A stretch of DNA of 64,000 bases from an uncultured Methanomassiliicoccaceae archaeon (GTDB taxonomy: Archaea; Thermoplasmatota; Thermoplasmata; Methanomassiliicoccales; JACIVX01). The stretch spans positions 4,843 to 68,842 of the forward strand of contig CAZJDY010000020.1 in assembly GCA_964544915.1 (NCBI GenBank), written 5' to 3'. The translations under genes were made by a program, and so were the position numbers. Positions within the stretch are counted from its first letter, which is position 1. Each line of letters begins with the position of its first letter. Under the pieces are notes generated by a model. That model saw only the letters and a program-made list of their open reading frames with translations. It had not been told where the DNA came from and made no database searches. Of this stretch, positions 16,290-44,410 are shown piece after piece.

Positions 16290-16434
16290 TCCCTGCCCCC
16301 AATCACGTAGAACATCTTCACTGATAGATAATCTTTGCAGACCGACCTCACAGGTCCCTCTGACCAGGCCTTGGAGGGCACAAGAGAGGAGAACCGGTCA
16401 AGAGTTAATAATCATAGAGTCAATCACTCGTAGC

Positions 16435-17306: not shown

Positions 17307-18440
17307 GTGGGTGGTCTGTTGGTCGCCGGTCGCCCTTCGGATGAAAACAAAGGTTCGGGTGGGGAGCTTGAATTCGACTGCCCGGAATGCGGGACGCATA
17401 TTGTAGGCGAGATTTCAAAGTGCCCGAAGTGTGGCGTCGAGTTCGTGATAGAGGAGGTCTCGGAATTCGAGTGCCCGGAATGTGGGACCATCGTTCCGGC
17501 CGACAGCACCAAGTGCCCCAAGTGCGGTGCGGTTTTTGAAATGGAGGTTGCACCGGGATCCGTTGCAGAAACCGAGGAGACACCTTCTGTCGTGCCCGAG
17601 GCCGTGATAGCAGCCGCACCGGCCCTCGAGGCCGCAATACCTGAGCCGGGTCGAGCAGTGCCTGCGGAGACACCTGAGGAAATCGAGCTTCGCAAGCAGT
17701 TCCCTCTGCTGGTCGAGGAGGTAAAACCCCTTCTATCCCTGGCGACGGAGTATGGAATCGATGCCGCAGAGGGAAGGCGATACATAGACAAGGCGGTTAG
17801 GGCCGGCAGGCAGAGGGACGTCGTCTCGGCCGTCAAGTTCGTGAAGCACTGCCTCGAGAGCGTGAGGTCCGCGATTGACGAACGGATAACCCGGGACTTG
17901 GATTACCTGGATAAGCTCGCGGAGATTGCGAAGAAGACAGGTTCGGACCCGATCATGATCCTTCAGGCCATGGCGAACGTGAAGGCTAAGAATGAGACTA
18001 CGGACGTCGCCGGAGCGCTTGCGGAGGCGAAGGCGGGAAGGACCGAGGCGGAGAGGATCACCGGGAAGTACATCGAGGCCAACGAGATCTGCGACGCGCT
18101 CGAGAGGTTGATGCAGAACTCCGAGAGATTCTACATCGACGTGCGCGATGCGAGAAAGCTCCTGAACGAGGCCAGGGACGCAGGACAGCATGGCGATTGG
18201 AGTATGATGGGGATATTGGCTCGGAAGGGAAGGGAAGAACTCTCTTCCTCATTGCCGGATGTGCTCAAGGGAGAGCTCAAGAAGGCGAAGGGCGCGTTGC
18301 TGGATGCGAAGGCGGAAGGCAAGGAAGTCTCAGCGTTGGTCAAGATCTTGAAGGATGCCGGAGTGGCGTTCAAGCAAGGGGATCAGGAAGAAGCGCTCGA
18401 GCGTCTAATCGAGTTCAAGACAGAGGTCAGGCATCTGTAA
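17307..18440 (+). CDS. Double zinc-ribbon protein with a Pro/Ala/Glu linker and a C-terminal helical-repeat domain
   Basis: Two ribbons are present: CPECGTHIVGEISKCPKCG and CPECGTIVPADSTKCPKCG. About four degenerate helical repeats follow, of the type (G/Y).D......L..A..AG...D...A. The start is GTG or TTG, with no in-frame ATG nearby. Confidence 0.6.
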   Translation: MGGLLVAGRPSDENKGSGGELEFDCPECGTHIVGEISKCPKCGVEFVIEEVSEFECPECGTIVPADSTKCPKCGAVFEMEVAPGSVAETEETPSVVPEAVIAAAPALEAAIPEPGRAVPAETPEEIELRKQFPLLVEEVKPLLSLATEYGIDAAEGRRYIDKAVRAGRQRDVVSAVKFVKHCLESVRSAIDERITRDLDYLDKLAEIAKKTGSDPIMILQAMANVKAKNETTDVAGALAEAKAGRTEAERITGKYIEANEICDALERLMQNSERFYIDVRDARKLLNEARDAGQHGDWSMMGILARKGREELSSSLPDVLKGELKKAKGALLDAKAEGKEVSALVKILKDAGVAFKQGDQEEALERLIEFKTEVRHL

Positions 18441-18445
18441 TTCTC

Positions 18446-20770: not shown

Positions 20771-20861
20771 GCCACTGTAGCTCAGCGGCAATCCGCGATC
20801 GCTAAAGAGCGACGGTTTCGTAAACCGTAGGTCGGGGGTTCAAAACCCTCCAGTGGCTCCA
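20771..20861 (+). tRNA. tRNA-Thr(CGU) with a ~15-nt insertion (putative non-canonical intron) in the D-loop; CCA encoded
   Basis: Hand fold: acceptor GCCACTG/CAGTGGC (7 bp), D-stem GCTC/GAGC, anticodon stem ACGGT/ACCGT with loop TTCGTAA (anticodon CGT), T-arm GGGGG-TTCAAAA-CCCTC, discriminator T and CCA. The D-loop holds 23 nt instead of 7-11. The extra segment is about 20789-20803. Confidence 0.8.
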
Positions 20862-27119: not shown

Positions 27120-27821
27120 ATGTTCAGGAACTCGATGCAAGGGCTCGACAAGATATTCCGGACGGACATAGACGCCCCGAAGGTCATTCTTGTGACCGGC
27201 CCGCCAGGGTCGATGAAGACGAGCTTCAGCTACTCTCTTATGTCCTCGTACCTCGAAAAAGCGGGAGAGTTTGGCTTGTACGTGACGCTTGAGGAGACCG
27301 CCGAAAGCCATCTGAAGAACATGCGTAGCCTCGGCGTCAAGATCAGTCCGAACCTGGAGATATCGGATTTCACCGATCTCAGGGAGCTCGACGAGGTGAT
27401 CGAGGTCGACAATCCGACCGACTACGTGCACTTCATCGAGCAGGTGATAGGTTACTTCAGGAACAAGCACAAGGAGAAGTTCACGGTCTTCGCCCTGGAC
27501 TCGATTGGGGCCCTATACTCACTTATGGAAGACGTGAAGTGCATGCGCAAGAAGATGTTCTACTTCTTCAAGACGCTGCGCGACTTCAACCTGATGTCCT
27601 TCGTCGTCATGGAACGCCCTCAGGGCGGCTCGAACGACATGCTCGGGAACGAGGTCTTTCTCGTCGATGGTATCATAGAGTTGGGTCTGGACAGGACGAG
27701 AGGGAAGCTCGTCAGATACATACGGGTCGACAAGATGAGGGCTTGCGAGCACAGCATGGAGAAGCATACGGTGGAGGTCGGGGAGGGCGGTCTGACGATA
27801 CTGGGCCCGACTCTGGTCTAG
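27120..27821 (+). CDS. KaiC/RecA-superfamily (ArlH/FlaH-sized) ATPase-like protein with a deviant Walker A
   Basis: The 233-aa size and pattern match single-domain KaiC-like proteins (VILVTGPPGSMKTSF...YVTLEE...FALDSIGALY...VDGIIEL...R.IRV.KMR). The P-loop reads GPPGSMKT, with Met in place of the Gly before Lys. Confidence 0.75.
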   Translation: MFRNSMQGLDKIFRTDIDAPKVILVTGPPGSMKTSFSYSLMSSYLEKAGEFGLYVTLEETAESHLKNMRSLGVKISPNLEISDFTDLRELDEVIEVDNPTDYVHFIEQVIGYFRNKHKEKFTVFALDSIGALYSLMEDVKCMRKKMFYFFKTLRDFNLMSFVVMERPQGGSNDMLGNEVFLVDGIIELGLDRTRGKLVRYIRVDKMRACEHSMEKHTVEVGEGGLTILGPTLV

Positions 27822-27852
27822 AAAAATACTTAAGACATCCAATTGATATTAG

Positions 27853-29103
27853 TTGAAAACTGGCATGTGGGAAACAGGAGGAAGGTTATTGCCCGAGGAT
27901 AGTGTTCCGATTTGGCAGGTCATCGAGGAGTTTAAGGACAAGATCAAGACGCAGGAAGTCGAGCTCAAGAAGCGAAGGGACGAACTCGACGTCCGCGACG
28001 CGGAGCTGAAGGAGCGGAAGAGGCTCCTCGACGAGCACGCGCAGAAGCTCGAGTCGAAAGGGAAGGAACTCGAAAAGCGCGAGGGCGAGCTGGTCCCGCG
28101 CGAGACCGAAGTCGCAAAGGTTGAGGCCGACCTTCGGACGATGTCGGCCGAGCTGAAGGAAAGGGACGGTGAGCTGCGCGCCGGAAGGCTCGGGCTCGAA
28201 AAACGCGAGCGTGAAATCACCCAGCAGGAAGGGGAAGTCCATAGGCTCACGGAGCAGACGAGCTCCTACGAGGGCAAGATAAAGCAGATGACCGACAGGA
28301 TCTCAGCGACTGAAGAGAAGCTTCTCGGCGAGGAACGGGAGATCAGGAAGATGCTCGACGATATCTCTTCGAAGAGGGAGGAGTTGCTCGCGAAAATCAA
28401 GGTCGTCGCGGAACAGGAAGGCCTTCTGGCGGAGAGCAAGCAGGTCGTCATGGACGAGCAGAAGAGATTCGTGGAGTGGGAGAGGATACTCAACGACCGC
28501 GAGGCGACGCTGAGCGAGCGCGAGAGGATACTGGTGAGGAAGGAGACGCGGGTTCCCGAGACGGTCGAGGTCAAGGAGAACATCTGTTCCAAGTGTGGTA
28601 GTGTTATTCCAGAGGGGTCTGACATTTGTTTGGCCTGCGTGGCTTTGGAGGCCGAGGCTAAGAGAGCCGAAGAAGAAGCTGCGAATAGGGTTGCAGAAGA
28701 GGAGGCAAGGAAGGCCGCCGAGGAAGAAGCCAGGAAGGCGGTGGAGGCTACCCAGGTTCAAGCGGCCACGGAAGTGGCGTCTGTGCTAGTGCCGGAGCCA
28801 GCACCGGTCGTAGTCGAGCGACCGGCTGCAGAACCGGTCGTTGAAGCTCAGCCCGAGCAGGTAGAAGCTTCGAAAGAGGAGCCCGCCCAGGAAGTGGTGA
28901 CGATTGAGAAGAGCTGCCCCAACTGTCGTACTATCGTTGACGCGAACGCGGAGAAGTGCTATGCCTGCGGAGCGGACCTGAGGGGAGTGGCCGAGGCGAA
29001 GGAGGAGGGGGTGCCCGCGGAGGAGAAGCTCGCGGACGAATCACAGAAGGGCCCGGAAGTGAAGCGGTCGGTGTCGATAAGAAGGATCATACGAAGAAAA
29101 TAA
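27853..29103 (+). CDS. Coiled-coil protein with two zinc ribbons and an acidic Ala/Glu/Pro linker
   Basis: About 230 aa of heptad-like K/E/R/L-rich sequence is followed by CSKCGSVIPEGSDICLAC, an AEEEARKA low-complexity stretch, CPNCRTIVDANAEKCYACG and a basic tail. Alternative ATG at 27865. Confidence 0.65.
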   Translation: MKTGMWETGGRLLPEDSVPIWQVIEEFKDKIKTQEVELKKRRDELDVRDAELKERKRLLDEHAQKLESKGKELEKREGELVPRETEVAKVEADLRTMSAELKERDGELRAGRLGLEKREREITQQEGEVHRLTEQTSSYEGKIKQMTDRISATEEKLLGEEREIRKMLDDISSKREELLAKIKVVAEQEGLLAESKQVVMDEQKRFVEWERILNDREATLSERERILVRKETRVPETVEVKENICSKCGSVIPEGSDICLACVALEAEAKRAEEEAANRVAEEEARKAAEEEARKAVEATQVQAATEVASVLVPEPAPVVVERPAAEPVVEAQPEQVEASKEEPAQEVVTIEKSCPNCRTIVDANAEKCYACGADLRGVAEAKEEGVPAEEKLADESQKGPEVKRSVSIRRIIRRK

Positions 29104-29292
29104 GGGAAGATCCCCTTCTTGTTCGTGTTTCGATCTAGTTCGTCTCTTCACACCTTCCTTGGTGGCTCCTTTATTCGACCTATTCAATTGAGTTCACTAC
29201 ATATTTCGTTCTTTCCCCTCGGAAAACAGGGCTTAGAGTAGGGGGTGATGGCAGACCATATTATCAGATTACATTACGGGCAAAGATATGTA

Positions 29293-29300
29293 TTTATAAT
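29293..29300 (+). promoter_or_regulatory. TATA-box-like element upstream of the giant surface-protein gene
   Basis: TTTATAAT lies about 45 nt upstream of the ATG at 29345. GGTGG lies 5 nt before that ATG. Confidence 0.4.
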
Positions 29301-29344
29301 GTCATGCTCCTACTTTATTGCCAGTAAATGTACCAGGTGGGATA

Positions 29345-32300
29345 ATGAGATTAAGTGTTCTGGCGAGCAAAGCAGCTAGCTTTCTGATTGTGTGGAGCAT
29401 GATGTTCTCCTCATTTGCCGGCCTTATCGTGCTGGGAATACCAGGCGTTGGCCAGGCAGTGCTGCCGTCCGAGTATTCGAATGGCGATATGATAATTGGT
29501 ACCGATTACACGATCTCGAATTGGGCTATCAACAATCGGGTCGAATACATGGACGGGAACCTGACGATCCGCTCCGGAGGTGTCGTAACGATCACCAACG
29601 GAGGACTGAGCTTCACTCAGGATACTGGTCCAGACGGGATCGCCGGGACTTCCGATGACCATGTCTATACCCTCATCGTCGAGGACGGCGGCACGCTCGT
29701 CCTTGAGAAATCGATTCTGACCACCCACCTGGATCAGCGGAACGATTTCCCAAGTCTTGGCGTCATTGTTAGGAACGGAGGGGCGTTGGAGGCCAGGAAT
29801 TCAACACTTAAGTTCCCCGGTCACATGGTCGTCGATGATTCGACACTCATGATGTGGAATGCGACCGTCACTGGGCAGGACCCGACCGACATTGTAGAAT
29901 TCTGCAACCAGACGCAGTTCCAGTCTGACGCGTTCGACGATTCTCCGGTAATGCTGTTCGTTTCAAGTGTCGTCAATATCTACGATTCAGAGATCAATGG
30001 ATTGTTCGAGAACACCACCGGGGTGCCGCCTGCTTCTTTGTACAACCATTCATATAGCTTCGCTTCCGACGACGGAGACAGATCGGTAGTAACATATAAT
30101 ATCACAAGGACTGTCGCCGCTATAGGTGCAGGAAACCCGTCGGGTCAACTACTTGCGAACCTCACGATGGACGATTCGAGGCTTTTCGCAGTAGGGTCAG
30201 GCCAGCGGCTATTGACTTCTGGCATCGACGCAGCGGGCCTCGCGTTCTCAGGGACTTCCGGTGTGGTTGTCACATTGCATGCGAAGTACAAGACGGACGC
30301 AGGATATACGGGTTCGAATCCTATCCAATGGCAATACAACAAAGGACCTCTGAGATCTAGTGGAATCGTGCCTGCAGATACATCGTCGCCGTTTGGACCG
30401 AATCTGGAGGTAACCAGATATGCCAAGTTGCCAGCGATGTCTTCCGCGGATTTGAGCGGTCTGAACATCTCATTCGCAAACAGCGTCGCGAACAGGGTTT
30501 ACTTCAACAGACTGTGGGTCACCGTCGAGATGCCGATCCAGACCTTCCGGAATCTGACGCTTGCCGGATCGACGCAAATGACAGCTGTCAATTCCTACAT
30601 TTCGACCGACTTCTCAAACGATCCACTCGTGCACAATCAATTGGCCGTTCTTGACAACGCCGACGCCTATCTGTACGGCGTCTCCGCAGACATGTCTCAG
30701 ACCGCGTCACCCTCATTCGATCGCCGACCTGCGTACTCGACATCTGACAGAGCATTCAGCGCGACACCTTCAGCACTGGGGTCTGGAAATACTGCAGCAG
30801 GAGAATCGATTGCCAACCTCACTGCCAATGATAATAGATACTTCAACGTGAACAGTGGAGAGAGAATGGCGATTGATGGATTCAATGTCAGCAATCTAGT
30901 TGGTGAGATTTCCAATGCTGTACTCAATGTGATATACCTTACAGAATCTGGATATACAACAAGGACGTACGTCAATTGGAGTCTCGAGGGAGGCGCTCTC
31001 CAGAACACCTCTATTCAACCAGTCAACATCGGTGCGGAGACCCTGGCCTCATTCAACCTATACAATGCAGGAGTGCGCACGCTGAGTGATATCGCTCAGT
31101 TGAATGTTGCCTTCGATGACAGAGGAGGTCTATTCGTATATTTCGAGAGAGTCTGGATCGAGGTAACCCTAAGACCAAACATCTATGTGTACCGGTGGAT
31201 GAACTTCAAAGCCGTTGATTCGCAGTCCTTGCCGGTGCAGGGTGCGTGGGTGAACGCGACAGTGTCGGCTTCTGGTACCGCTGCGTACTACTACACTCCG
31301 TCAGGAGTGATAGGCGCACCGCCCACCGAGGTTCTTGACTACCTCGGAAAGGACGTTACCAGCTACAAGCGCACGAATCCATACGGCTCAGCAATGATAC
31401 CTCTGTTCTGGGAAATTGTCAATGAATCCACTATGCCGAATTCAGGGGTGCTGGGAGGGTATGACCTCAACGTGACTTACAGGAATGTCACAAGCGTTAT
31501 GTACTACTACACAACCGGTGTGAGCTTCGCACCATATCCAGCGCTTTCAGAGGCGGACCAGACCAAAGCGGTTACGGTAACACTGTCCAGTCTGGTGCTT
31601 GACAAGCCGGACTTGGTCGTCACAGCCCTGACTGCTCTGCCAACGACAGTATACGAGGACGACACGGTAACATTGACAGCGACGGCGGCGAACAACGGGC
31701 TAACGGCCGCGACCGATGTCCTGGTGACCTTCACGGACTTCTTCGGAGGCACGCTGACTGAGATCTCAAATGCAACTATTCCGTTCATGTTAGGCGCTTC
31801 GTCGACAGACGTGGTCGTGAGCTGGTCAAACACTCTACCGGGCGTTCACACCATAACCGCGAGAGTAGATCCTTTCGACAATGTCATCGAACGGAGTGAA
31901 TCGAACAACGAGCTATCGATTCAGGTCAATGTTCTGGCAAACCTACCCGAGCTGTCGATCGTCTCGAGCGACATCGTGATCGATCCTCAACCTGCCTATA
32001 CCGGCGCACAGGTCTTCGCGAACGCGACCATTCGCAACACACTCGGAAGAGCCAATGCAATAAACGCAGTCGTTGAGTTCTACATAGGCAACCCGATGAG
32101 CGGCGGACAGTTACTTGGATCGACGAGTGTCAATGTTCCAGCTGGAGGGTCGAACGTCTCCAGCTTCGAGTGGGTTCCGTCTCAGATTGGCGAGTACTCG
32201 ATTTATGTCTATGTCAACCGTTTAAGGGCAATCACAGAGTACGACTTCACAAACAACCTTGCATCCACGGACGTTATCGTTGAACTCTCGACAAACGAGT

Positions 32301-34912: not shown

Positions 34913-34920
34913 ACACAAAC

Positions 34921-34945
34921 CTTTTTTCTCTTTCTTCTTTTCACT
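34921..34945 (+). terminator. Oligo-T tract downstream of the giant gene (archaeal-type terminator)
   Basis: CTTTTTTCTCTTTCTTCTTTTCACT starts 9 nt after the TAG stop. Confidence 0.45.
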
Positions 34946-35048
34946 GTCTATTCTATCATTCTTCTTGCGGCGTCTGGCATTGTCTGGTTTCCGAGCATGA
35001 ATTCATATCGAAAAGCCCGGCATGACTGTGAAGAATGATGGAGATATG

Positions 35049-35098
35049 GGGCGGCGCAATTCAAATTGCCGCGCCGCCGCGCGGTCAAAATGAAAAAA
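35049..35098 (-). terminator. GC-rich imperfect hairpin plus T-runs (minus strand) downstream of the filament operon
   Basis: On the minus strand the TAA stop at 35115-35117 is followed by CCCTTTTTTCATTTT and then the inverted repeat GGCGGCGCGGCAA/TTGCGCCGCC. Confidence 0.4.
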
Positions 35099-35114
35099 GG
35101 GAAACGTCCGATTA

Positions 35115-36803
35115 CTAAGTCATTTTCTCCCTTATTTCTTTGACAGTCCTCTCGGGGTCCTTGTAATATGCCGAGATTATGTTTGCGACCTGCTTGTAGT
35201 TGTCGACGCCTATCTTCTTCATGTACTCGAGGATGTCAACCCTGCGCTTCACCTCGCGCTCCATCTCCCTCGGGGACCAGTTCCTTATCGCCCTGACCTT
35301 CTCGTATACATAGGAGTGCCCGCTGAAGTTGAACGTATCGTCCGCGGGGTTCCAAGTGTGGACGGCGTTCGTGATGAGCTCTCCGGTCTCCGGGTCCATG
35401 CCGACGATCTCGGTCAGGGATTTGACCCTCCTCGTCATCTTCGTGCCTACTTTTACCTGCGCTTGTAGGAGCACGATGTCGAGCGCCGTCAGCAATGCTC
35501 TCGGGAGGTTGATTGGGTCGTTCTCCATCCTGTGCACCATCGCCTGAACGTCCTCTGCGTGGAAGGTCGAATAGGCGGTCTTGCCGGTCGCCATCGCCTG
35601 GAATACGACGTAGGCCTCCTTGCCTCTGACCTCACCAACCATTAGGTACTGAGGTCTCTGCCTCAGCGCGGTCGTCAATAGCTCGAACATGTCAATCGTG
35701 CCGGTCTTGCCGCCGCCCCTGCCGCCAAAGCCCTCTCTTGTGAGGGACGGAATCCAGTTCTCGTGAGGCAGGTTGAGCTCCCTGGTGTCCTCGATGCTGA
35801 CAATCTTCATTTGTGGCGGTATGAACAGCAATACTGCGTTCAAAGTCGTCGTCTTGCCGCTCGCGGTACCTCCGCAGACGAGCATCGAGCTACCGTATTC
35901 GGTAGCGATCCAAAGATAGGCCATCATGTCAGTGCTCATCGTTCTGAATTTGAGCAGATCGATCGGGGTGAACGGGTTCTCCTTGAAGCGTCTGATCGTG
36001 AAGGACGATCCCCTCTTCGTGACGTACTTTCCTAGGGTCGCATTGAGCCTCGAGCCGTCCGGTATGGTAGCGTCAAGTAACGGGTCAGCGACGGATATGT
36101 GCTTTCCGCACTTCTGTGCCAACCAGACGACGAACGCGTCGAGTTCCATCTCCTTCTCGAATCTGATGTTCGATCTGATCGATCCGTATTTTCTGTGGTA
36201 GATGTAAAGTGGAATGTCAACCCCGTCGCAAGAGCAGTCCTCAACGTTCGGGTCGGTCATCATGACATCTATTGCACCATATCCGATGAAGTCCCTCCGG
36301 AGAAAGTATATGATCCTGTCCTTCGACACCGGGTGGAGTGTCACGCCGAACGTTTTCATGAGGGTATCTGTCGCCTTGTTTAGGATATTATCCTTCTCGA
36401 CGGCCGACTCGATCTCCGCCAGGTTCAGCGTCATTATGAGTGCGTTCTTGAGCAGCTCCAGAAGGTTGCGTTCGTCTCCAGACAGGTTCGGCTCGATTAC
36501 CTCATAGAGGTACTCTCCTCCGACGTTGTCGTACCTTATCCGTACGAACGAGTAGGGGTCCATGATCTTCGAGATCTCGACCTCGTCGACTCCGGGGTCC
36601 GATATCTTCGGTATCTCTGTTATGACGTCGAGCGGTCCTTTGTTGACCTCGGATGGAATCATGATCTTCATCGGTTTGCTCTTCAGCTTGAGCAAGAATG
36701 AAAGGTATCTGCTTGAGAACCCGCCGCCTGACCTTCTCTCCTTTGCTTCCTCTTCAGCTCTCTCCTCAGGGAGAGGTCCTTCCATTCTAGCGGCATCTGT
36801 CAT
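35115..36803 (-). CDS. FlaI/ArlI-TadA (GspE/VirB11) family secretion ATPase, paralogue 1
   Basis: Walker A GGTASGKTT, EDTRELNLPHENWIP, Walker B region LMVGEVRGKE, and FQAMATGKTAYSTFHA. Confidence 0.9.
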   Translation of the reverse strand: MTDAARMEGPLPEERAEEEAKERRSGGGFSSRYLSFLLKLKSKPMKIMIPSEVNKGPLDVITEIPKISDPGVDEVEISKIMDPYSFVRIRYDNVGGEYLYEVIEPNLSGDERNLLELLKNALIMTLNLAEIESAVEKDNILNKATDTLMKTFGVTLHPVSKDRIIYFLRRDFIGYGAIDVMMTDPNVEDCSCDGVDIPLYIYHRKYGSIRSNIRFEKEMELDAFVVWLAQKCGKHISVADPLLDATIPDGSRLNATLGKYVTKRGSSFTIRRFKENPFTPIDLLKFRTMSTDMMAYLWIATEYGSSMLVCGGTASGKTTTLNAVLLFIPPQMKIVSIEDTRELNLPHENWIPSLTREGFGGRGGGKTGTIDMFELLTTALRQRPQYLMVGEVRGKEAYVVFQAMATGKTAYSTFHAEDVQAMVHRMENDPINLPRALLTALDIVLLQAQVKVGTKMTRRVKSLTEIVGMDPETGELITNAVHTWNPADDTFNFSGHSYVYEKVRAIRNWSPREMEREVKRRVDILEYMKKIGVDNYKQVANIISAYYKDPERTVKEIREKMT

Positions 36804-36806
36804 TCT

Positions 36807-37757
36807 CTATCCTCCTATGACTCTCGTTCCGATAAAGCCGATGGCTAACATGATGAAGCTGTGCCTTAGTCCATTGGTGATTCTGCCATCCTGGAGGACA
36901 CCTGCGAGGATGCCGTCACCGAAAGCATGGAGTACTACCGCAATCACGAAGATCAACTGGACCTGCGGGATGACTTTGGTCTGTATGGTTGCTGGCATAT
37001 TCGTTATGCCAGCCGCTTCGGCGCCCTCTGCGACCTGCTGGCCCGCTTCCGCCATCTTCGGCAGGAAGGTCGAGTTCAGGATGAATATCGTCGCAATGAA
37101 CACCATGAACGCGATGTAGATGACGACCATGTATGTCGACATGGCTATCTTCCTCTCGTTCTCGTTAAGCATCGTCTCCCTCGCGTCGTGGGCGACCATT
37201 GTGAGGACATCCGCGACGCTTCCGCCGGCATCGTTCGCCTTGATAATGATTGACATCATCCTGTTGACGAGGGGCGTGTTCACCCTCTCTGCAAACAGGC
37301 GAATCGCATCGGCTGCCGGTACTCCCCAGTCTATCTGAGCGGCCATCCTCTTTATCTCTGGCGTCAGTTTGCCGTACCTGCCTCTAGATGAGACCTTGAT
37401 CGCCTCGGCCAATGTCATGCCGAATCGCCCAGCTTCGGCCACATCTCTGAGGAAATCCGGCAGTCTAGACTCTATTTCCTTTATCTTCTTGTGACGGGAG
37501 GTCATGTAGAAGCCATACGGTCCACTCATCGCCATTAGTCCGAAGGCGAGGAAGTCTATCCATTCTAGACCGGTGCTTAGTCCTCCGATGGCGTCCAGGA
37601 ATCCCACAAAGAACAGTACGACTGCTATGACGACACCCACTATGAGGATTATCCTGGCATAATCCCTCTTGTTCGTCTTGAGCTGGTCGATGTCTAGGAT
37701 TCGCTCCTTCTTGCCCTCCTTCTTCTTCTCTTTCCCCTTCCTAGCCATCCCGATCAC
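36807..37757 (-). CDS. Single T2SSF-domain membrane protein (FlaJ/TadC-like, C-terminal-half equivalent)
   Basis: 316 aa. A cytoplasmic helical domain (LAEAIKVSSRGRYGKLTPEIKRMAAQIDWGVPAADAIRLFAERV...DAGGSVADVL) is flanked by transmembrane helices. There is a 3-nt spacer to each neighbouring gene. Confidence 0.75.
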   Translation of the reverse strand: MIGMARKGKEKKKEGKKERILDIDQLKTNKRDYARIILIVGVVIAVVLFFVGFLDAIGGLSTGLEWIDFLAFGLMAMSGPYGFYMTSRHKKIKEIESRLPDFLRDVAEAGRFGMTLAEAIKVSSRGRYGKLTPEIKRMAAQIDWGVPAADAIRLFAERVNTPLVNRMMSIIIKANDAGGSVADVLTMVAHDARETMLNENERKIAMSTYMVVIYIAFMVFIATIFILNSTFLPKMAEAGQQVAEGAEAAGITNMPATIQTKVIPQVQLIFVIAVVLHAFGDGILAGVLQDGRITNGLRHSFIMLAIGFIGTRVIGG

Positions 37758-37760
37758 CCC

Positions 37761-38801
37761 TCATAGGCTGGTCTCCTTGGTAATGTTCCATATGAAGAAG
37801 ATGAATCCGAACTGGGAGATTGGAATCATCAGTCCGACCACCGCATAGAGGAGGGTGATGGTCATGTCCGATGAGCCCCCTCCGCCAGGAACGATTGCCA
37901 TTATCGCCATGATGACGACAAGAAACAAAGGAAATGCGACGACGACAGTGACGAAGGACTCGGCCATAAGACCAAGGGTCTCGAGCTGCGAGCGCATCTC
38001 AAGCTTGCCCTCCTTCTCGAACTGCTCCGCCTTCTGCAGGAAGTAAGGTTTCAGCTGACCGCCGGAAGTGGAGGTCGTGACGACACCCTGTAGGAACTCC
38101 TGAAATCTGGAGGACGGGGTTCTCTGGGCCGCATTGTTTATCGCAGTCAGTATGTCGATCCCGAGGAGTTCTGTGTCCCTCGTGATCCACTCTGCCTCAT
38201 CCCTGATCTCGCCGTAAATCTCTTGCCTCGAAAGTTCCTTGAAAATGACGTCGACGTTGACATCTGCGGATGCCATCGCGGAAATGAAGCTCATCGCAGG
38301 GCCGATTCTCTTGTCTATGTCCCTGCCCCTGCGCTTCGCCTTCGACGCCGGCTGCGAGATCAGGACGACGTACGCCAGCATCGGGGGTATAGCAACCATA
38401 AGCACGAGTCCGACCAGGACGAGCGCGGCGTCGATCTTCAGGAAGCTCAGGATGATGCCGCCCATGAGAACAGCGACGACCCCGGCCACGGCGCCGACGA
38501 GTATGGTCGTCATCCAGACGTAAGCCACATATTCCTCCGTTCGCATCTTCATGTGGGCCTGGAGCAGGCTCTGTTCGAGCTTGGGGTTCGGTTTAGCTTT
38601 CAGTTTCACAAACGCTCCCAAAGTCCTCCAGCAGAACTCCTGATACTTCGTGAGCTTGATGTAATCTGGAATAGCGCCCTGGGGAAGCCTGACAACGTGG
38701 GGGCCGGCGATCTCAGGCTTATCTTCCGCCCTCTTGGTCTTCAGATACGACTTCTTCGAGGCCTCTAATCTCGCAAATATGTCAGAGACTTCGGGCGCCA
38801 A
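37761..38801 (-). CDS. Single T2SSF-domain membrane protein (FlaJ/TadC-like, N-terminal-half equivalent)
   Basis: 346 aa with the same transmembrane-helix/helical-domain/transmembrane-helix layout (ISAMASADVNVDVIFKELS...AINNAAQRTPSSRFQEFLQGVVTTSTSGGQL). The predicted TTG start overlaps the upstream ATPase by 20 nt. Confidence 0.7.
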   Translation of the reverse strand: MAPEVSDIFARLEASKKSYLKTKRAEDKPEIAGPHVVRLPQGAIPDYIKLTKYQEFCWRTLGAFVKLKAKPNPKLEQSLLQAHMKMRTEEYVAYVWMTTILVGAVAGVVAVLMGGIILSFLKIDAALVLVGLVLMVAIPPMLAYVVLISQPASKAKRRGRDIDKRIGPAMSFISAMASADVNVDVIFKELSRQEIYGEIRDEAEWITRDTELLGIDILTAINNAAQRTPSSRFQEFLQGVVTTSTSGGQLKPYFLQKAEQFEKEGKLEMRSQLETLGLMAESFVTVVVAFPLFLVVIMAIMAIVPGGGGSSDMTITLLYAVVGLMIPISQFGFIFFIWNITKETSL

Positions 38802-40572
38802 CCTGCGTCACCCCCTCATTCATTTCCCTGCGTACCCTCTTTATTGTCTTGTCAGGGTCCTTGTAGTAGCTGTTGATGAGCCCCCAAAGCTTCCTATGGT
38901 CAGTGACGTCCTTCTGGACCATGTACTTGACGATGTCAGTCCGTCTGTTGAACTCGTCCATCATCTCCTCGTGAGTGAGGCTTTTCATCTCCATGATTTT
39001 GTCGAACAGGAAGCTGTGGCCTTTGTAGATGAACTTGTCAGTGGCCTGGTCCCACTCGTAGACGGTGTTCGTGATGAGCTCGTTGGTTTCGGGCTCGAAA
39101 CCGACGATTTCGATGACCTGTTTGATCCTCCTAACTAAGTCAGTCCCGACTCTCGCGTGGGTCTGGATGACGACATTCCTAAGTGCTGTGAGTAGGATTC
39201 GCGGGCAGTTGATCGGTGGGTTCTCGAGCCTGTTTACCATCGACTTGATCGAGTCTGCGTGCATTGTAGAGTAAGTGGTGTGGCCGGTGGCCATCGCCTG
39301 GAACATGATGTATGTCTCTTTGCCCCTGACTTCACCTACGATGATGTAGTTGGGGCGCTGCCTCAGGGAGGCCCTGACGAGGTCGTACATGTCGATCTCC
39401 CCGGCCATTCTCCCGTCCGCGTCTCGCTCCCCCACGCCGGTCCTCGTCGCACCAGGTATCCAGTTATCGTGCGGTAGGTTGATCTCCCTTGTGTCTTCCA
39501 TAGTGACCACTTTGGCCCCTGGAGGAATGAACAATGCGATCGAATTCAGCGTGGCGGTCTTGCCGCTGGCGGTTCCGCCAGCTATGATTGCGGACTCTCC
39601 GTTCTCGACACCCAACCAGAAGTATGCGACCATCTCCGGACTCGCCGTACCGAACTTGACAAGCTCTACAGGAGTGAACGGTTTCTCCTTGAAGCGTCTG
39701 ATCGTGAATGTAGACCCTCTTGTCGTCACTTCCCTCGAATAGGTCGCTTGGACACGGTGACCTTCGGGAGTGGTGCCATCGAGGATCGGGTTCGACACCG
39801 ATATCTGCTTGCCGCATCTCTGTCCCAGGGCAACTACGTATGAGTTGAGCGCGTCCTCATCGTTGAAGATCAGACTGGTCTTTATGCTCTCATATTTCCT
39901 GTGGAAGACGAAAAGTGGAATGCCGACTCCGTCGCACGAGATATCCTCAACGTTCTCGTCCTTCATGATGGCGTCGACCCGCCCATATCCGACAAAGTCC
40001 CTGGTTATGTAGTACCCTATCTTCTTCCGAGCGAGAGGATTAATCCTTACTCCTCGGCTCTTGATGTAACTCTCGACGCTCCCCTCGAGGTACTCTTCCT
40101 TGTCGAGCTCGGTAAGCTTGACCCACTCATATCCCAGTGTCCTCTTGAAGGTGTCTTTTATCAGGTCGAGCAGTCTCTCCTCCTTTTCCGTCAGCTTCGG
40201 TTCTATCATGTCCAGGACGTACTCGCTCGTTTCCTTGTTGAAAGTCACCCGGACGAAGCTGAAAGGATCCACTACCGGGTAGATCTCAGCGACCTCGATG
40301 TTGGGATTGTCGATCTTCGGGATTTCTGTGATGACAGAGCCCCTGCCCTTTGACCATTCGATTCTCTGGGCTATCTCGCCCATGGGGAGTCTTACCCTGG
40401 ACGCCCTATTCGGAGCGACCTTTCGGAGGAACTTCAAATAGGAATCCCTCATCTTGTTCGTGACCTTCGATTCGCCCTGGAAATCCTCCGCCGATTCTTT
40501 CCCGGAGACGACTTCCGCCTCACTCGACTGGTCGCCTTCTGTCATCTTTCCAGCTTCAGCTTCCTGCATCAT
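38782..40572 (-). CDS. FlaI/ArlI-TadA family secretion ATPase, paralogue 2
   Basis: Walker A GGTASGKTA, EDTREINLPHDNWIP, IIVGEVRGKE, and FQAMATGHTTYSTMHA. The acidic N-terminal extension differs from paralogue 1. Confidence 0.9.
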   Translation of the reverse strand: MMQEAEAGKMTEGDQSSEAEVVSGKESAEDFQGESKVTNKMRDSYLKFLRKVAPNRASRVRLPMGEIAQRIEWSKGRGSVITEIPKIDNPNIEVAEIYPVVDPFSFVRVTFNKETSEYVLDMIEPKLTEKEERLLDLIKDTFKRTLGYEWVKLTELDKEEYLEGSVESYIKSRGVRINPLARKKIGYYITRDFVGYGRVDAIMKDENVEDISCDGVGIPLFVFHRKYESIKTSLIFNDEDALNSYVVALGQRCGKQISVSNPILDGTTPEGHRVQATYSREVTTRGSTFTIRRFKEKPFTPVELVKFGTASPEMVAYFWLGVENGESAIIAGGTASGKTATLNSIALFIPPGAKVVTMEDTREINLPHDNWIPGATRTGVGERDADGRMAGEIDMYDLVRASLRQRPNYIIVGEVRGKETYIMFQAMATGHTTYSTMHADSIKSMVNRLENPPINCPRILLTALRNVVIQTHARVGTDLVRRIKQVIEIVGFEPETNELITNTVYEWDQATDKFIYKGHSFLFDKIMEMKSLTHEEMMDEFNRRTDIVKYMVQKDVTDHRKLWGLINSYYKDPDKTIKRVRREMNEGVTQVGARSL

Positions 40573-40587
40573 TACACCGCTTCAATG

Positions 40588-41514
40588 TCAGATCTGAACC
40601 CCGACGTTCACGAATGCTCGGTTATAAGTCATCATCCCAGCGTTCACTATCTTAAGTGTGACAGTGTGGACGTTGTCGTTCACCGGCAGATCCCTTATGG
40701 AGTAATCTCCTGAGCTCAGGGAGTAATCTCCTAAGATCAGTCCGGCCTTCGAGCACAGGTCGCCAAGGTATTGTTGCCATGCCGTCCAATAGCGGGTCGT
40801 AAGGGTGATGTTGACGTACTTGTCGGTCAAGTATCCAACGGCATAGTCCTGGGAATCGATGTACACGAGGTTCAGATTCAGGCCAACAGTGCCGGTCCCG
40901 CCGACACTTGCGTTGGTCCCTATGAAGTCAATCTGAGTGAACTTGATGTTGATCGCCGATCCAATCTTCTCGACCTCCAAGCTAGGGTATGCCCTAATGA
41001 TCTGACCGTCCTGTTGCTTGACGATCATCGCACCGTTCTCGTACGCCACCCACTGCTGGACGTAATACCTGTTTGGAGCGTACAGCTCCACCATGCCGCC
41101 TCCAGACTCCGACACGCTCGTCTTGGAGCCCTCAAGCGAATAGTTGAAGCATACCTTGACGCCCGAATCACCCATCCCCTGGGGCGAGTACGTCAGCAAT
41201 CCGGCGGTCGGGGAAGCGAAAACCGGTATCCCTGCCGCGCCGAGAGGTATCGGCGAGTACATGTGGATCGAGGTGGAACCAGTCACTTGAGCAGTGACGA
41301 TCAGGTTGTCGATCTTCCCTTTGAGGTCACCGAACTGATTGATCGCCTGGCTCATATGTGCTCTCTCATTGTCCTGCATCCACACAGGAATGTAAGAGTT
41401 GGTGAACATTGAAAGGAATGTCATGAATACCAGCAGGGCCATGATCGTACCCACGGTCGACGCGACACCTTCCTCGTCGCGTCTCAAGAAGTGACGCTTG
41501 TCTAGCCTAGTCAT
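40588..41514 (-). CDS. Archaeal type IV pilin-like protein (class III signal-peptide-like N-terminus plus a large beta-rich domain)
   Basis: MTRLDKRHFLRRDEEGVASTVGTIMALLVFMTFLSMF has a charged leader, G|VAS, then a hydrophobic helix, as in archaeal prepilins. It is the first gene of the operon. The ORF could extend to 41550. Confidence 0.6.
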   Translation of the reverse strand: MTRLDKRHFLRRDEEGVASTVGTIMALLVFMTFLSMFTNSYIPVWMQDNERAHMSQAINQFGDLKGKIDNLIVTAQVTGSTSIHMYSPIPLGAAGIPVFASPTAGLLTYSPQGMGDSGVKVCFNYSLEGSKTSVSESGGGMVELYAPNRYYVQQWVAYENGAMIVKQQDGQIIRAYPSLEVEKIGSAINIKFTQIDFIGTNASVGGTGTVGLNLNLVYIDSQDYAVGYLTDKYVNITLTTRYWTAWQQYLGDLCSKAGLILGDYSLSSGDYSIRDLPVNDNVHTVTLKIVNAGMMTYNRAFVNVGVQI

Positions 41515-41787
41515 TCGACGTCCCTCACGGGAACCGAACATACCCTCCACCAGTGACCCAGTTCCTTCGGGTGAAAATGAGCAACATATAACTATTTAAA
41601 CATGTCGTGGTTGCTGGCTTGAATTGAGAACGACGTTCAGGAACGCGTTGTCCGATGCTTTCTCGGTGCCTATCGACGAGTTGAATATCGAGATAGGCGC
41701 CGGCACCAGCGACGTCATTCGAAAGGTCACGGAATGGCAGATCTGGGGAAAAAGACCTACGGCATCCAGATTCGTCAATAAGTAAGC

Positions 41788-41795
41788 TTTATTAC
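41788..41795 (+). promoter_or_regulatory. TATA-box-like element upstream of tRNA-Phe
   Basis: TTTATTAC is centred about 30 nt upstream of tRNA position 1. Confidence 0.35.
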
Positions 41796-41820
41796 AATCC
41801 TCTCTGTTCTCTGAACGCAC

Positions 41821-41912
41821 GCCGCGGTAACTCAGTTGGGAGAGTGCAAGACTGAAGTTCCTGCATGGGAGCGGATATCTTGAAGTCGCTGGTTCAAATC
41901 CGGCCCGCGGCA
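41821..41912 (+). tRNA. tRNA-Phe(GAA) with a canonical 19-nt intron after position 37 (41858-41876); CCA not encoded
   Basis: Hand fold: acceptor GCCGCGG/CCGCGGC, D-arm ACTC-AGTTGGGA-GAGT, anticodon stem CAAGA/TCTTG with CTGAAG[intron]A, T-arm GCTGG-TTCAAAT-CCGGC and discriminator A. Confidence 0.85.
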
Positions 41913-41992
41913 CATCAACGCACAAATGAAACGCCCTGTCTCGCCTCCAGTAATGGTCGAAATGTCTATTATCTAAATGAGCGATTGGTCTA

Positions 41993-42430
41993 TTGGGCGC
42001 GATGATGCAGGTCAAGGGATTCGAAACAAACATGATCGAGGCGAAGAGATTCTCGAAGTCCGGCGAACGGATCTCGAACGTCAGAATTGACCAGAACAGC
42101 TCCGTAACTCAGATTTCGAGGGTCGCAGAGGATACCGCGTCGGTCGAGTTCAGGTTTACCGCGAACTACGTCGGGATGGGATACATCAAGATCGAGGGTC
42201 AGATAATGCTCTCTGGGGAGGTCGAGGGCCTCGTGGACGAATGGTCAAAGAAGAACTCCATGCCTGACGAAGCGGCGAACCTTGTTCACAACATGATAGT
42301 TTCGAACTGCATCCCCACTGCTCTGCTGGTTTCCCGCGACATCAGGCTTCCCCCGCCGTTCCCGCTCCCGAGGGTCAATATCCAAAAGAAAACTGCGAGA
42401 GGCCCAGGAGAGAGCGTAGAAGTCGCCTGA
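41993..42430 (+). CDS. Hypothetical small protein with a SecB-like C-terminal pattern
   Basis: 145-aa ORF; ATG alternatives at 42002/42005. The C-terminus NCIPTALLVSRDIRLPPPFPLPRVNI resembles the SecB segment CPNILFPYARE...FPQLNLAPVNF. The similarity is weak and judged by eye only. Confidence 0.4.
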   Translation: MGAMMQVKGFETNMIEAKRFSKSGERISNVRIDQNSSVTQISRVAEDTASVEFRFTANYVGMGYIKIEGQIMLSGEVEGLVDEWSKKNSMPDEAANLVHNMIVSNCIPTALLVSRDIRLPPPFPLPRVNIQKKTARGPGESVEVA

Positions 42431-42457
42431 ACGGTCATGTTATTGAAGAGTGTGCCC

Positions 42458-44410
42458 TCAGCGAATGTGTTCCAAGGCGAATGAACCGATTGTCAGGCCG
42501 TGCTTGCTCGAAGTGTACCTTATGTAAGTCCTTGATTGCACGTCGGATATGCCACTGACCGCGAAGAAGGTTCTCAGCTGGTCAACCTTGAAGTCGATCA
42601 TTCCGTCCATGATGGATCCGAGCATCTGGATTTCCTGCTCACCGTGCACCCCCTTCTCGACTGTGAAGAGCGCGACAGCCTTGTCTCTTTTCCTCCGGCC
42701 GCAGAACGGACTCAAGAACCTGAACGCGGTATTTGGGTCAGAATAAGCTATGAGCGTCGAGATGGATCTGAATGCGAGGCGGTACGATTCATGCTTATCT
42801 TTGTACACCTTCGCGATTTTCTCGACGTTGTCCATAATCGTGTCATGGTCGGTCGGCTCGTCGATATAAATCGTGTAAGGGTCGTCGGTCGTCTCTCCCA
42901 TGCTCCTTGAATAGGAATCGACATATTTCACGAGGCCCAGCTTCTCATATTCCTCGTATCCAGATAGCACGTAGTTCATCTCTTCTCTAATGTCGTGGGG
43001 AGTCTTGTCGGTGAGTACCCACAACACCGGCAGCCCTTTCTTGAGTCCCTCTGCCATGAATTGGTTCACCATCACCTCTTTTCCGACGAAGGGTGGACCG
43101 TGAATCAGAATGTTCGATCCGAACGGGATGCCTCCGAGTAGCAGATCGTCGAGACGATCATTGCCGGTCTTCACCTTCGCCTGTTGCACCTCGAGCGCCC
43201 TATCCTGCTCTTTCGCTGATATCTCGTCCTCTATTACGCCTTGCTCTCTACGGCGCAACTCCTCCATTTTCGCGTTGAGATACTTCTCCTTTGCCCGGAT
43301 CTCCTCCTCTTTTCTCTGGATATCCGCCTTGAGATCCTCGAGACGCTTCTTCAGTTCCAGCTCGTCCAGACCAGAGAGCTGTTTCTTCATCTCATCGAAT
43401 CTGCGGTGCTCCTCTGAAAGCACCTTCTCCCTGTGGAACAGATCTTCCTCTCTCCGGAGGATTTCTTCTTCTTTGTATGAGACGACGGACTTGATCTTCG
43501 AAAGCTCATCATCCTTCTCTCGATTCTCTGTTCTGAGCTTCTCGATTTCTGCGTCCTTCAACATGATGGATTTTTCTTTGAGCTGCAAATCTCTGATTCT
43601 TTCCTGAATCTCTCTCTCCGCTTCGGGGCCGGTCATTCGCGCGATCTTCAACTCGCTTTCCAGGAGTCTGTCGTCGATTGCCTTCTGTTTCAGGTCCTGT
43701 TCAAGCCTGTCGACTTTCGCCAGCAACTCCTGCTCTCTACGCTGGAACTCAAGGTCCTTTCCTCTGAGCTCCGCGTGGAATCTCTCCTCGAGGTCATTCT
43801 CGTCGGCGGCCGAGATCGTCTTGTTCTTCAGCGTCACTTCCTTTTCTGACACAGCGGTCTCTCTGGTGGAAAGCTCCTTTTCGAGCTCCTTCAGTTCAAC
43901 TTCCTTCCGGATGATGGAAGCCCGGTCCTCAGGCAAGTTGCCAAGGGAACTTTCGAACTGGCTCTTGAGCGCCTCCCTCATTTCCCTGGCGTTCTCAAGT
44001 TCTTTCAGAAGTCTCGTGTTCTCGTTTGAGAGCCCGCGCAACTTCTTGGTCGTCTCTGGATCCGTCACTCCCGTGCTCTCTCCCCTCTCCCTCATCTCAC
44101 CTATTTCCTTCCTCAGACGGGTTAGCTTGTCCTCGTAATCCGTGACCTTCTCCTTCAAAGTCAGTTGGTCTTCCTGTGCCTCCGATTCCCCTCCGATTTC
44201 GACATCCGAGTTTATCGGAAGCTCGGGCTCGGCACCTTCGTTCAACCAAGAGAGAAGACTCTCCTCGCCGCTCAACCATTTCTTCAGATCGTCGATTCTC
44301 TCTGCGGCCACCCCATTTGAGCCGTTCTGACCAGTCTCGCCAGTGGATTCGTTGGAATCATTCGGTGCTCCCTGATAGTCCAGGTTGCCACCCTCTGATT
44401 TCTTTTGCAC
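42458..44410 (-). CDS. Coiled-coil protein fused to a C-terminal KaiC/RecA-like ATPase domain with a deviant Walker A
   Basis: Residues ~60-400 are K/E/L/R-rich heptad-like sequence. The C-terminal ~245 aa read LLLGGIPFGSNILIHGPPFVGKEVMVNQF...LWVLTDKTP...SISTLI...DGMIDF, which is KaiC-like. The P-loop is GPPFVGKE, with Glu where Ser/Thr is expected. Confidence 0.75.
   Translation of the reverse strand: MQKKSEGGNLDYQGAPNDSNESTGETGQNGSNGVAAERIDDLKKWLSGEESLLSWLNEGAEPELPINSDVEIGGESEAQEDQLTLKEKVTDYEDKLTRLRKEIGEMRERGESTGVTDPETTKKLRGLSNENTRLLKELENAREMREALKSQFESSLGNLPEDRASIIRKEVELKELEKELSTRETAVSEKEVTLKNKTISAADENDLEERFHAELRGKDLEFQRREQELLAKVDRLEQDLKQKAIDDRLLESELKIARMTGPEAEREIQERIRDLQLKEKSIMLKDAEIEKLRTENREKDDELSKIKSVVSYKEEEILRREEDLFHREKVLSEEHRRFDEMKKQLSGLDELELKKRLEDLKADIQRKEEEIRAKEKYLNAKMEELRRREQGVIEDEISAKEQDRALEVQQAKVKTGNDRLDDLLLGGIPFGSNILIHGPPFVGKEVMVNQFMAEGLKKGLPVLWVLTDKTPHDIREEMNYVLSGYEEYEKLGLVKYVDSYSRSMGETTDDPYTIYIDEPTDHDTIMDNVEKIAKVYKDKHESYRLAFRSISTLIAYSDPNTAFRFLSPFCGRRKRDKAVALFTVEKGVHGEQEIQMLGSIMDGMIDFKVDQLRTFFAVSGISDVQSRTYIRYTSSKHGLTIGSFALEHIR

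Follow-up and report, generated by a model that had tools for sequence, protein, structure and literature searches.

Type IV pili (T4P) of the euryarchaeal clade 2 include the PilB3/PilB4 systems of Haloferax volcanii and the afGspE system of Archaeoglobus. According to the sections of the 2016 census available to us, they follow a pattern of two tadC genes, an all-beta minor pilin of 250-550 amino acids (aa) and pilins encoded in trans, and in Aciduliprofundum boonei the genes for two ATPases lie together (Makarova et al. 2016, PMC4858521). The same sections name a surface-layer (S-layer)-like protein, an intracellular coiled-coil protein and KaiC-family ATPases as recurrent neighbours, and record no secretion ATPase in the Methanomassiliicoccus genomes available at that time (PMC4858521). 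A close relative in gene architecture is CdiP of Cuniculiplasma divulgatum, an adhesive, non-twitching pilus of an archaeon that lacks a wall or S-layer; the available passages describe machinery with two PilB/AapE-type ATPases, a platform encoded as N- and C-terminal half genes and a major pilin encoded elsewhere, and treat the need for two ATPases and a split platform as an open question (ISME J 2025, PMC12448462). Here, we describe a 64,000-nucleotide (nt) stretch of DNA (the window) from an uncultured archaeon of the Methanomassiliicoccales, in which positions 27120-44410 encode a single-domain KaiC-family ATPase (KaiC233), a coiled-coil zinc-ribbon protein (CCZn416), a giant surface protein and a T4P operon (Table 1). 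Members of this order are methanogens that occur widely in wetlands, sediments and guts. The pilus machinery proved to be of a known kind, the core of the neighbourhood recurs in two lineages, and we lean, with some reserve, towards the view that KaiC233/CCZn416, the giant protein and the operon are functionally linked.

The five-gene operon, which converges on the giant-protein gene, encodes euryarchaeal clade-2 (PilB3/afGspE/CdiP-type) T4P assembly machinery and not a new apparatus. It is assigned to this pattern because it combines two ATPases, a split platform and a minor-pilin-like gene with no major pilin in the window. Behind the DUF7289 pilin-like gene at its head, the order is ATPase596, T2SSF346 (N-terminal half of the platform), T2SSF316 (C-terminal half) and ATPase562, with junctions of 3 nt, 3 nt and one 20-nt overlap. 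Both ATPases match T2SSE (108.8 and 106.3 bits; cut-off 24.9) and carry PilB3_C, and they are 47% identical to each other over their full length. The closest solved structure to the 562-aa ATPase is GspE2 of A. fulgidus (2OAP, 443 bits, as against 298 bits for FlaI), which is likewise the clade-2 enzyme. The catalytic motifs (Walker A, Asp box, Walker B, His box) are preserved in 76/76 orthologues of ATPase562 and in 64-68 of the 68 of ATPase596. The two platform proteins (T2SSF, 73.7 and 48 bits; cut-off 25.2) contain several transmembrane segments each and between them span the N- and C-terminal halves of the ArlJ/UpsF models, corresponding to the two tadC-like genes of clade 2. The first-pass annotation had held that the neighbourhood matches no known archaeal pilus locus. 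This view has to be given up, as two ATPases with a split platform are what the available passages describe for CdiP and for the clade-2 T4P of Makarova et al. (2016). CdiP comes from the same phylum and shares the two-ATPase/split-platform operon with no major pilin beside it, a likeness of gene architecture only; the present operon differs in being headed by a DUF7289 pilin-like gene. Flanking KaiC-like, zinc-ribbon and giant tail-anchored proteins are not described in the CdiP passages (PMC12448462), and the searched passages of the census (PMC4858521) make no mention of zinc-ribbon tails, a KaiC233-CCZn pair or DnaA-iKaiC fusions (iKaiC, inactivated KaiC).

The gene content of 27120-44410 was checked gene by gene, and every gene listed in the first-pass annotation was present where it had been placed, as judged by Pfam, tRNA and fold checks. 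Pfam scans covered the ten genes of that finding and 14 further large open reading frames (ORFs) of the window, 24 in all; NCBIfam scans covered the ten genes. Since a statement about gene content has no applicable chance expectation, the test used was conservation of the neighbourhood in relatives. All window proteins were mapped onto 80 genome loci (lineage A) that carry an orthologue of the 562-aa ATPase, at 66-95% identity, in metagenome-assembled genomes (MAGs) of Methanomassiliicoccales and other Thermoplasmata. The other four operon genes lay beside the ATPase in all 50 assessable loci, so that two ATPases and a two-gene split platform were kept in one operon throughout. The giant protein and KaiC233 were found in 36/36 assessable loci, CCZn416 in at least 31 of the 36 by tblastn, and p145 (a small protein with a SecB-like fold) and CC-iKaiC650 (a coiled-coil/KaiC fusion) in 49/50. 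The slot of CCZn416 was inspected in one of the five loci missed by tblastn, L085, and held a diverged coiled-coil/zinc-ribbon ORF. The genes past position 44410 (o173, deoxyhypusine synthase and DUF531) were present in 22-26 of the 50 loci.

Because gyrA was also syntenic in lineage A (33/36 assessable loci), inherited gene order needed to be separated from functional linkage, and a second lineage was therefore scanned. For this sister lineage, lineage B, a scan around the KaiC233 orthologue of L085, the most divergent locus of the first set, yielded 80 metagenome loci. Both gyrA and gyrB were absent from 80/80 of these loci, which rules out gyrBA as part of the unit, and thiC was absent from 80/80 as well. 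In this lineage with its different flanks, KaiC233-CCZn still preceded the giant protein in 20/26 loci and the T4P ATPase in 18/26. On the upstream side, full-length homologues of a zinc-ribbon protein (Zn377) and a DnaA-iKaiC fusion directly preceded KaiC233 in 37 of 38 loci. Thus, scattering of the genes in relatives, which the first-pass annotation had named as the finding that would speak against it, was not seen, and the core is kept in both lineages. The conserved set also reaches further left, to 17307-20677, a part that had been overlooked. As for the single functional unit proposed earlier, synteny supports the T4P operon, the giant protein, CCZn416 and KaiC233 as candidate members; membership of tRNA-Phe and p145 is not supported.

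A further line of evidence comes from the giant protein itself. It has a Sec-type signal peptide and one C-terminal transmembrane helix (residues 1618-1649), followed by a cytoplasmic tail with six CxxC motifs, that is, three zinc ribbons, and the basic motif PRLRRIVKRP (..LRRIVRRP.. or ..MVIRRPIDRKVVPKKIIK.. in orthologues). The protein contains 33 N-x-S/T sequons, and its repeats appear to resemble a parallel beta-helix. Behind the transmembrane helix, exactly six CxxC motifs and the basic motif occur in all full-length orthologues whose 3' end is intact (40 of the 41 ORFs recovered; the remaining one, in L019, is a mis-called ORF of 309 aa). Median identity to the window protein is 63% across the 156-residue tail and about 27% across the ectodomain (n=33). 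The tail is therefore conserved to the same degree as KaiC233 and the ATPases, and the exposed part evolves fast. Such strong constraint on the tail implies an intracellular partner, and the contrast between tail and ectodomain is what would be expected of an adhesin or envelope protein whose partner inside the cell is conserved. The basic C-terminus of CCZn416 (..SIRRIIRRK; ..SIRKIIKRK-COOH or ..FVKKIVKKK.. in orthologues) has a basic-hydrophobic motif in common with the giant tail. CCZn416 starts exactly 31 nt past KaiC233 (among relatives the median gap is about 27 nt), and the two genes probably form one operon and are co-transcribed. KaiC233 itself appears to be an active ATPase with a non-canonical P-loop: GPPGSMKT, in which M replaces G of the canonical GxxxxGK[ST], is invariant in 40 orthologues, and the catalytic LEE is kept.

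Several observations weigh against a functional link. The KaiC quartet occurs in L092, L114 and L173/L174 with neither the giant protein nor T4P genes within 10 kb, so the KaiC module is not obligatorily placed beside pilus genes and may serve other outputs; in L173/L174 a 941-aa CC-iKaiC homologue lies 9.4 kb from the quartet, with T4P genes not nearby. In L085 the T4P flank is present without p145 and CC-iKaiC650. The linkage rests on synteny within one class, Thermoplasmata, and the protein homologues considered, the best 120 matches, all came from this same clade. The motif common to the giant tail and CCZn416 is short and could be a membrane-binding patch or an effect of composition. A paralogous relationship between the two was rejected, as BLASTP gave generic zinc-ribbon matches alone (E about 1e-3). 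The sequence motifs of the non-canonical KaiC233 P-loop and of the probably dead CC-iKaiC650 also count on this side. Lastly, gyrBA and tRNA-Phe, clearly unrelated in function, are likewise syntenic in lineage A.

Taken with the isolated KaiC quartets and with the housekeeping contexts in which relatives of p145 are found elsewhere (see below), this last point leads to an alternative in which the pilus operon, an S-layer-like envelope glycoprotein and a general KaiC hub are separate systems whose adjacency was inherited in a slowly rearranging clade. We regard this explanation as unlikely, though it is to be taken seriously. What argues against it is that the core neighbours persist in two lineages with both flanks replaced, and that order and orientation are kept despite large divergence (about 27% for the giant ectodomain and 40% for p145). 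The constrained giant tail also implies an intracellular partner, and where the giant protein is replaced, its substitute is a giant pilin-type protein. The latter case is found in L137 (7637-14608) and L141 (3090-10472), where proteins of 2323 and 2460 aa fill the slot after KaiC233-CCZn. They carry an archaellin/type IV pilin N-terminus, KKG/VSEVIGTILILAITVV, and match TIGR02537 above its cut-off, so that the KaiC233-CCZn pair is again tied to T4P-type surface proteins. Both would be unusually large for pilin-type proteins. Overall, the cytoplasmic genes resemble a KaiC/iKaiC and zinc-ribbon/coiled-coil module in its own right, which usually, but not invariably, adjoins the pilus operon and the giant-protein gene.

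Table 1. Features of the locus, with coordinates in the window and the matches on which each assignment is based
Feature	Coordinates	Strand	Length	Matches
Zn377, N-terminal double zinc ribbons and helical C-terminal part	17307..18440	+	377 aa	Pfam Zn_ribbon_3, DZR, DUF7129
DnaA-iKaiC fusion	18446..20677	-	743 aa	Bac_DnaA 4.6e-60 (202.9 bits), DUF835 2.6e-24
KaiC233, single-domain KaiC-family ATPase	27120..27821	+	233 aa	Pfam KaiC 1.4e-36, 126.4 bits (cut-off 26.6)
CCZn416, coiled coil and two CxxC...CxxC zinc ribbons	27853..29103	+	416 aa	Pfam DZR, Zn_Ribbon; SMC and RNase Y N-terminal matches
Giant surface protein	29318-34912, likely start 29345	+	1855-1864 aa	Sec-type signal peptide, 4x CARDB, CarboxypepD_reg
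Five-gene pilus operon	35115-41550	-		Pfam
T4P assembly ATPase, paralogue 1 (ATPase562)	35115..36803	-	562 aa	T2SSE, PilB3_C
Platform protein, C-terminal half (T2SSF316)	36807..37757	-	316 aa	T2SSF 1.6e-20; ArlJ model positions 260-542
Platform protein, N-terminal half (T2SSF346)	37761..38801	-	346 aa	T2SSF 1.6e-12; ArlJ model positions 4-243
T4P assembly ATPase, paralogue 2 (ATPase596)	38782..40572	-	596 aa	T2SSE, PilB3_C
DUF7289 pilin-like protein	40588..41514	-	308 aa from Met at 41514	DUF7289 30.8 bits (cut-off 27)
tRNA-Phe (GAA)	41821..41913	+	93 nt	tRNA search, Rfam
p145, SecB-like fold, Pro-rich C-terminal tail	41993..42430	+	145 aa	AlphaFold2, Foldseek
CC-iKaiC650, long coiled coil and C-terminal degenerate KaiC/DUF7504	42458..44410	-	650 aa	Pfam KaiC 71.5 bits (cut-off 26.6)

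If the link favoured here, which joins KaiC233/CCZn416 to the giant protein and to the pilus operon, is real, then one could envision the following arrangement. The operon would assemble adhesive T4P from pilins encoded elsewhere, and KaiC233 and CCZn416 would form a membrane-proximal cytoplasmic complex that binds or senses the giant tail through zinc ribbons, the basic motif or both, and that modulates the two-ATPase pilus motor. CC-iKaiC650 and the Zn377/DnaA-iKaiC pair would probably take part, the iKaiC proteins as further inputs or outputs. Such a KaiC hub would be a regulatory and scaffold layer in a role like that of ArlH/ArlCDE(X) at the archaellum. By joining sensing of the giant tail to modulation of the motor, the system would make pilus assembly responsive to surface contact or adhesion, and it would do so in an archaeon without a rigid wall. 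A more specific version is that a fast-evolving giant adhesin signals across the membrane, through its three-zinc-ribbon tail, to a Thermoplasmata-specific module of five proteins (KaiC233, CCZn416, CC-iKaiC650, Zn377 and DnaA-iKaiC) that would gate the motor, for example by selecting which ATPase engages the split platform. We offer this version as a doubtful conjecture. If true, it would amount to a new archaeal "outside-in" device for adhesion-to-pilus signalling, built on zinc-ribbon contacts.

With regard to what is new, the kind of pilus machinery (clade-2/CdiP) and the association of T4P with KaiC, coiled-coil and S-layer-like proteins are already known. On the accessible literature, the Thermoplasmata-specific conserved set, the three-zinc-ribbon tail and the KaiC233-CCZn pair appear to be new, as do the fusions of DnaA-AAA+ and of a coiled coil to iKaiC. 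The locus is a strong candidate for the machinery that assembles pili-like appendages in environmental Methanomassiliicoccales. It is present, as judged by ATPase homologue loci, in dozens of MAGs of this order; the 562-aa ATPase is 93% identical to its counterpart in MAG OWC_0006, and KaiC-like proteins identical to those of the window are found on wetland and sediment metagenome contigs. The KaiC/zinc-ribbon module and the tail-anchored giant protein beside the operon are, moreover, candidate regulators or switch factors that bear on the two-ATPase question.

The operon's first product is of interest with respect to what the machinery might assemble. The DUF7289 gene is the sole class-III-like ORF within the window. 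Its product carries the class III-type signal RRDEEG/VASTVGTIMALLVF, a motif kept in orthologues, and its AlphaFold2 model (predicted local distance difference test score, pLDDT, 84) shows a helix of roughly 70 residues (6-78) followed by an all-beta domain. TIGR02537 gave no match to the protein, and Foldseek against the PDB returned no significant pilin or other fold match; the helix-plus-beta architecture of the model is suggestive of a pilin and nothing firmer. We presume that it is a minor or priming pilin, similar to arCOG02911. The search for class-III-like ORFs revealed no small major pilin in the window, and the Pfam scan of the 24 larger ORFs gave no prepilin peptidase (PibD/FlaK/EppA). 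The peptidase is probably encoded elsewhere in the genome.

That no major pilin gene was found in the window would also suit a display or anchoring machine, in which a short pseudopilus of the kind seen in the bindosome or a type II secretion system presents giant adhesins, and the KaiC and zinc-ribbon proteins are assembly chaperones of these adhesins instead of pilus regulators. The 2300-2460-aa proteins with a type IV pilin N-terminus in the giant slot of L137 and L141 fit such a machine, as do secondary matches to the BasE and BasF bindosome models and the nearby protein with a SecB-like fold. However, the bindosome scores (197-207 bits) are far under the cut-off of 1000, and PilB3 and CdiP systems also encode their major pilins in trans. 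Furthermore, the window's giant protein, with its Sec-type signal and C-terminal anchor, is not a T4P substrate. For Methanomassiliicoccus luminyensis CZDD1, a preprint describes pili-like appendages and high expression of a type IV pilin needed for direct interspecies electron uptake. A display machine is, in our judgement, improbable.

The first-pass annotation had likened KaiC233 to ArlH, the KaiC-like component of archaella, and had considered a role in motility. The length of KaiC233 does match that of ArlH, and in NCBIfam the ATPases and the platform halves are best named by the FlaI and ArlJ models, so a divergent archaellum-like motility apparatus with KaiC233 in the ArlH position had to be weighed. 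The scores do not bear it out. KaiC233 reached 24.8 bits with the ArlH model (NF052589; cut-off 215) and 27.5 bits with the FlaH subfamily model (cut-off 194), and was rejected as ArlH. The ATPases were rejected as FlaI (ArlI) at 435 bits for the 562-aa protein and 410 bits for the other (cut-off 550), as were the platform halves as ArlJ equivalogs at 58-77 bits (cut-offs 400-570). The afGspE2 structure is also much closer to the ATPase than FlaI is, and KaiC233 lies outside the ATPase operon, on the opposite strand, with a 5.6-kb gene between. Neither archaellins (ArlA/B) nor ArlF/G/C/D/E/X were found in the Pfam and NCBIfam scans of the ten genes or in the Pfam scan of the 14 further large ORFs. 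These membership tests effectively refute an archaellum-like apparatus, and with it the motility role. By its family scores KaiC233 is a generic single-domain KaiC, and its closest solved structures are KaiC CI, PH0186 and PH0284. What the locus has in common with the archaellum (ArlH/ArlI/ArlJ/ArlCDE(X)) is that KaiC-family and coiled-coil cytoplasmic proteins accompany an ATPase of the T4P superfamily and a platform. A regulatory and scaffold role as proposed here would be analogous, not of the same ancestry: the proteins are not homologous at the equivalog level, archaellins and stator proteins were not found in the scanned ORFs, and the KaiC and ATPase genes here belong to separate, convergent transcription units.

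The remaining members of the KaiC module are degenerate or lie to the left of the block. CC-iKaiC650 has the P-loop GPPFVGKE, an instance of the motif GPPF[VIT]GKE that is invariant in its family, and TDK in place of the catalytic EE; because its P-loop is degenerate and the catalytic EE is lost, it is probably catalytically dead. Its orthologues in sister clades are longer (760-890 aa; L029:1832-4315 and also L031, L039, L045 and L078) and begin with a zinc ribbon followed by helix-hairpin-helix (HhH) motifs (HHH_5, 8.5e-14), both of which are missing from the window's own protein. Zn377 is cytoplasmic and, although it lies outside 27120-44410, is syntenically linked to KaiC233. Its gene and that of DnaA-iKaiC are arranged tail-to-tail, 5 nt apart, and the pair forms a unit in both lineages (L085, L087-L166, L173-L176), a Zn377 homologue also lying upstream of KaiC233 in L173-L176. 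In the window, a tRNA gene, thiC and gyrBA intervene between this pair and KaiC233, and the order in L175 is the same. The DnaA-iKaiC protein consists, in order, of an N-terminal domain without a known match, a coiled coil, a zinc ribbon, a DnaA-type AAA+ region (domain III and lid) and C-terminal DUF835. The AAA+ region scores 319 bits with TIGR00362 (cut-off 343.9) and 253 bits (E 8e-74) with the DnaA structure 8bv3, and on these matches the 743-aa protein carries a genuine bacterial-type DnaA domain III. Domain IV, the helix-turn-helix that binds DnaA boxes, is absent: the TIGR00362 match covers positions 99-349 of 437, and DUF835 occupies the C-terminus.

The DnaA domain raises the question of whether the system is linked to DNA, either as a pilus for DNA uptake or exchange, in parallel with Ups/Ced or competence pili, or through KaiC/RadA-like and DnaA-like ATPases that act on DNA. 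The HhH motifs and zinc ribbon of the CC-iKaiC orthologues, the adjoining gyrBA of lineage A and the membership of KaiC in the RecA/RadA superfamily could all be read in this way. We consider it quite improbable. The DnaA-like protein has no DNA-binding domain IV, CC-iKaiC650 of the window lacks both the HhH motifs and the zinc ribbon, adjacency to gyrBA falls to 0/80 in lineage B, and the Pfam scans of the ten genes and 14 large ORFs detected no ComEC/CedA-type channel or nuclease.

KaiC-like ATPases are reportedly signal-transduction hubs in archaea, as Makarova, Galperin and Koonin are said to have put forward in 2017. DUF835 and MEDS have been described as inactivated KaiC (iKaiC) signalling domains in the part of the literature accessible to us (PMC5847659). 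As in such hub systems, one apparently active KaiC, two degenerate ones (DUF835; DUF7504/MEDS-like) and their partners share a conserved neighbourhood here. The fusions of DnaA-AAA+ to DUF835, of coiled coil to iKaiC and of zinc ribbon, HhH, coiled coil and iKaiC were not verified among the architectures in the accessible literature, which also offers no match for a link to a zinc-ribbon-tailed surface protein. The DnaA-AAA+/iKaiC fusion and the zinc-ribbon tail of the surface protein would accordingly widen the known archaeal KaiC "hub" repertoire.

Other genes in or near the block are lineage-specific bystanders, namely gyrBA, thiC, tRNA-Phe and, probably, p145. The tRNA-Phe gene probably contains an intron because it is 93 nt long here, and its counterparts in L016, L029, L045 and L078, which occupy the corresponding position, have 74 nt. 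p145 had been called SecB-like, a designation that holds for the fold and not for the sequence. Its AlphaFold2 model (pLDDT 84), a four-stranded sheet with a long helix as in SecB and the SecB-like chaperone Rv1957, matched 5mtw, 1qyn and 1fx3 in Foldseek (E 2e-4 to 2e-3, probability 1.0, template-modelling score 0.53-0.61). No Pfam or NCBIfam family matched the sequence, and a profile search against the PDB gave nothing below E=1. To our knowledge, archaea are without SecA. An exhaustive profile search found 968 representatives of the p145 family at 50% clustering. The family is archaeal and, in further distinction from SecB, has an invariant Pro-rich C-terminal segment (R-x-x-x-LP-x-P-x-P-x-P) and ends almost invariably in ..E-V-A. 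The genes of three distant members, which come from hydrothermal and other Thermoplasmata, have ribosomal, TFS, Cdc48 or HhH-GPD genes as neighbours, and pilus, KaiC or secretion genes were not nearby. The size of the family and these housekeeping contexts weaken the case for a dedicated pilus chaperone, and p145 was for the latter reason not counted as a dedicated component. Four members of 262-272 aa (P0231, P0232, P0234 and P0248) contain two matching stretches, the full-length one being C-terminal, and may be tandem duplications.

An Rfam scan of 17000-45000 identified two tRNAs and nothing else. The second of these (20771-20861, 91 nt; Rfam 58.7 bits) is, like tRNA-Phe, longer than normal and was left unnamed by ARAGORN, with the anticodon given as "ta". 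In this lineage some 1.8 kb separate the DnaA-iKaiC gene from gyrB-gyrA, an arrangement reminiscent of dnaA...gyrB in bacteria; the adjacency is not kept in the sister lineage. Two Lhr-type large helicases are encoded at 7477-12843 (+) and 49501-52254 (-), the first of which (1788 aa) is fused to AlkZ-like DNA-glycosylase domains. Between it and Zn377 are an OGG_N glycosylase-like ORF (14229-15545) and a gene for an AP-endonuclease-2 with a TIM barrel (16219-17241), and the Lhr/AlkZ, OGG_N-like and AP-endonuclease-2 genes make up a small DNA-repair cluster. Two further genes resemble the giant protein in single features. A secreted protein of 360 aa (6296-7378, -) has three CarboxypepD_reg domains, a domain type also present in the giant protein. 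A multi-pass membrane protein of 220 aa (52403-53065, +) has a weak C-terminal zinc-ribbon match (E 0.13-0.25) and, if the zinc ribbon is real, would be another membrane protein of this genome with a cytoplasmic zinc ribbon.

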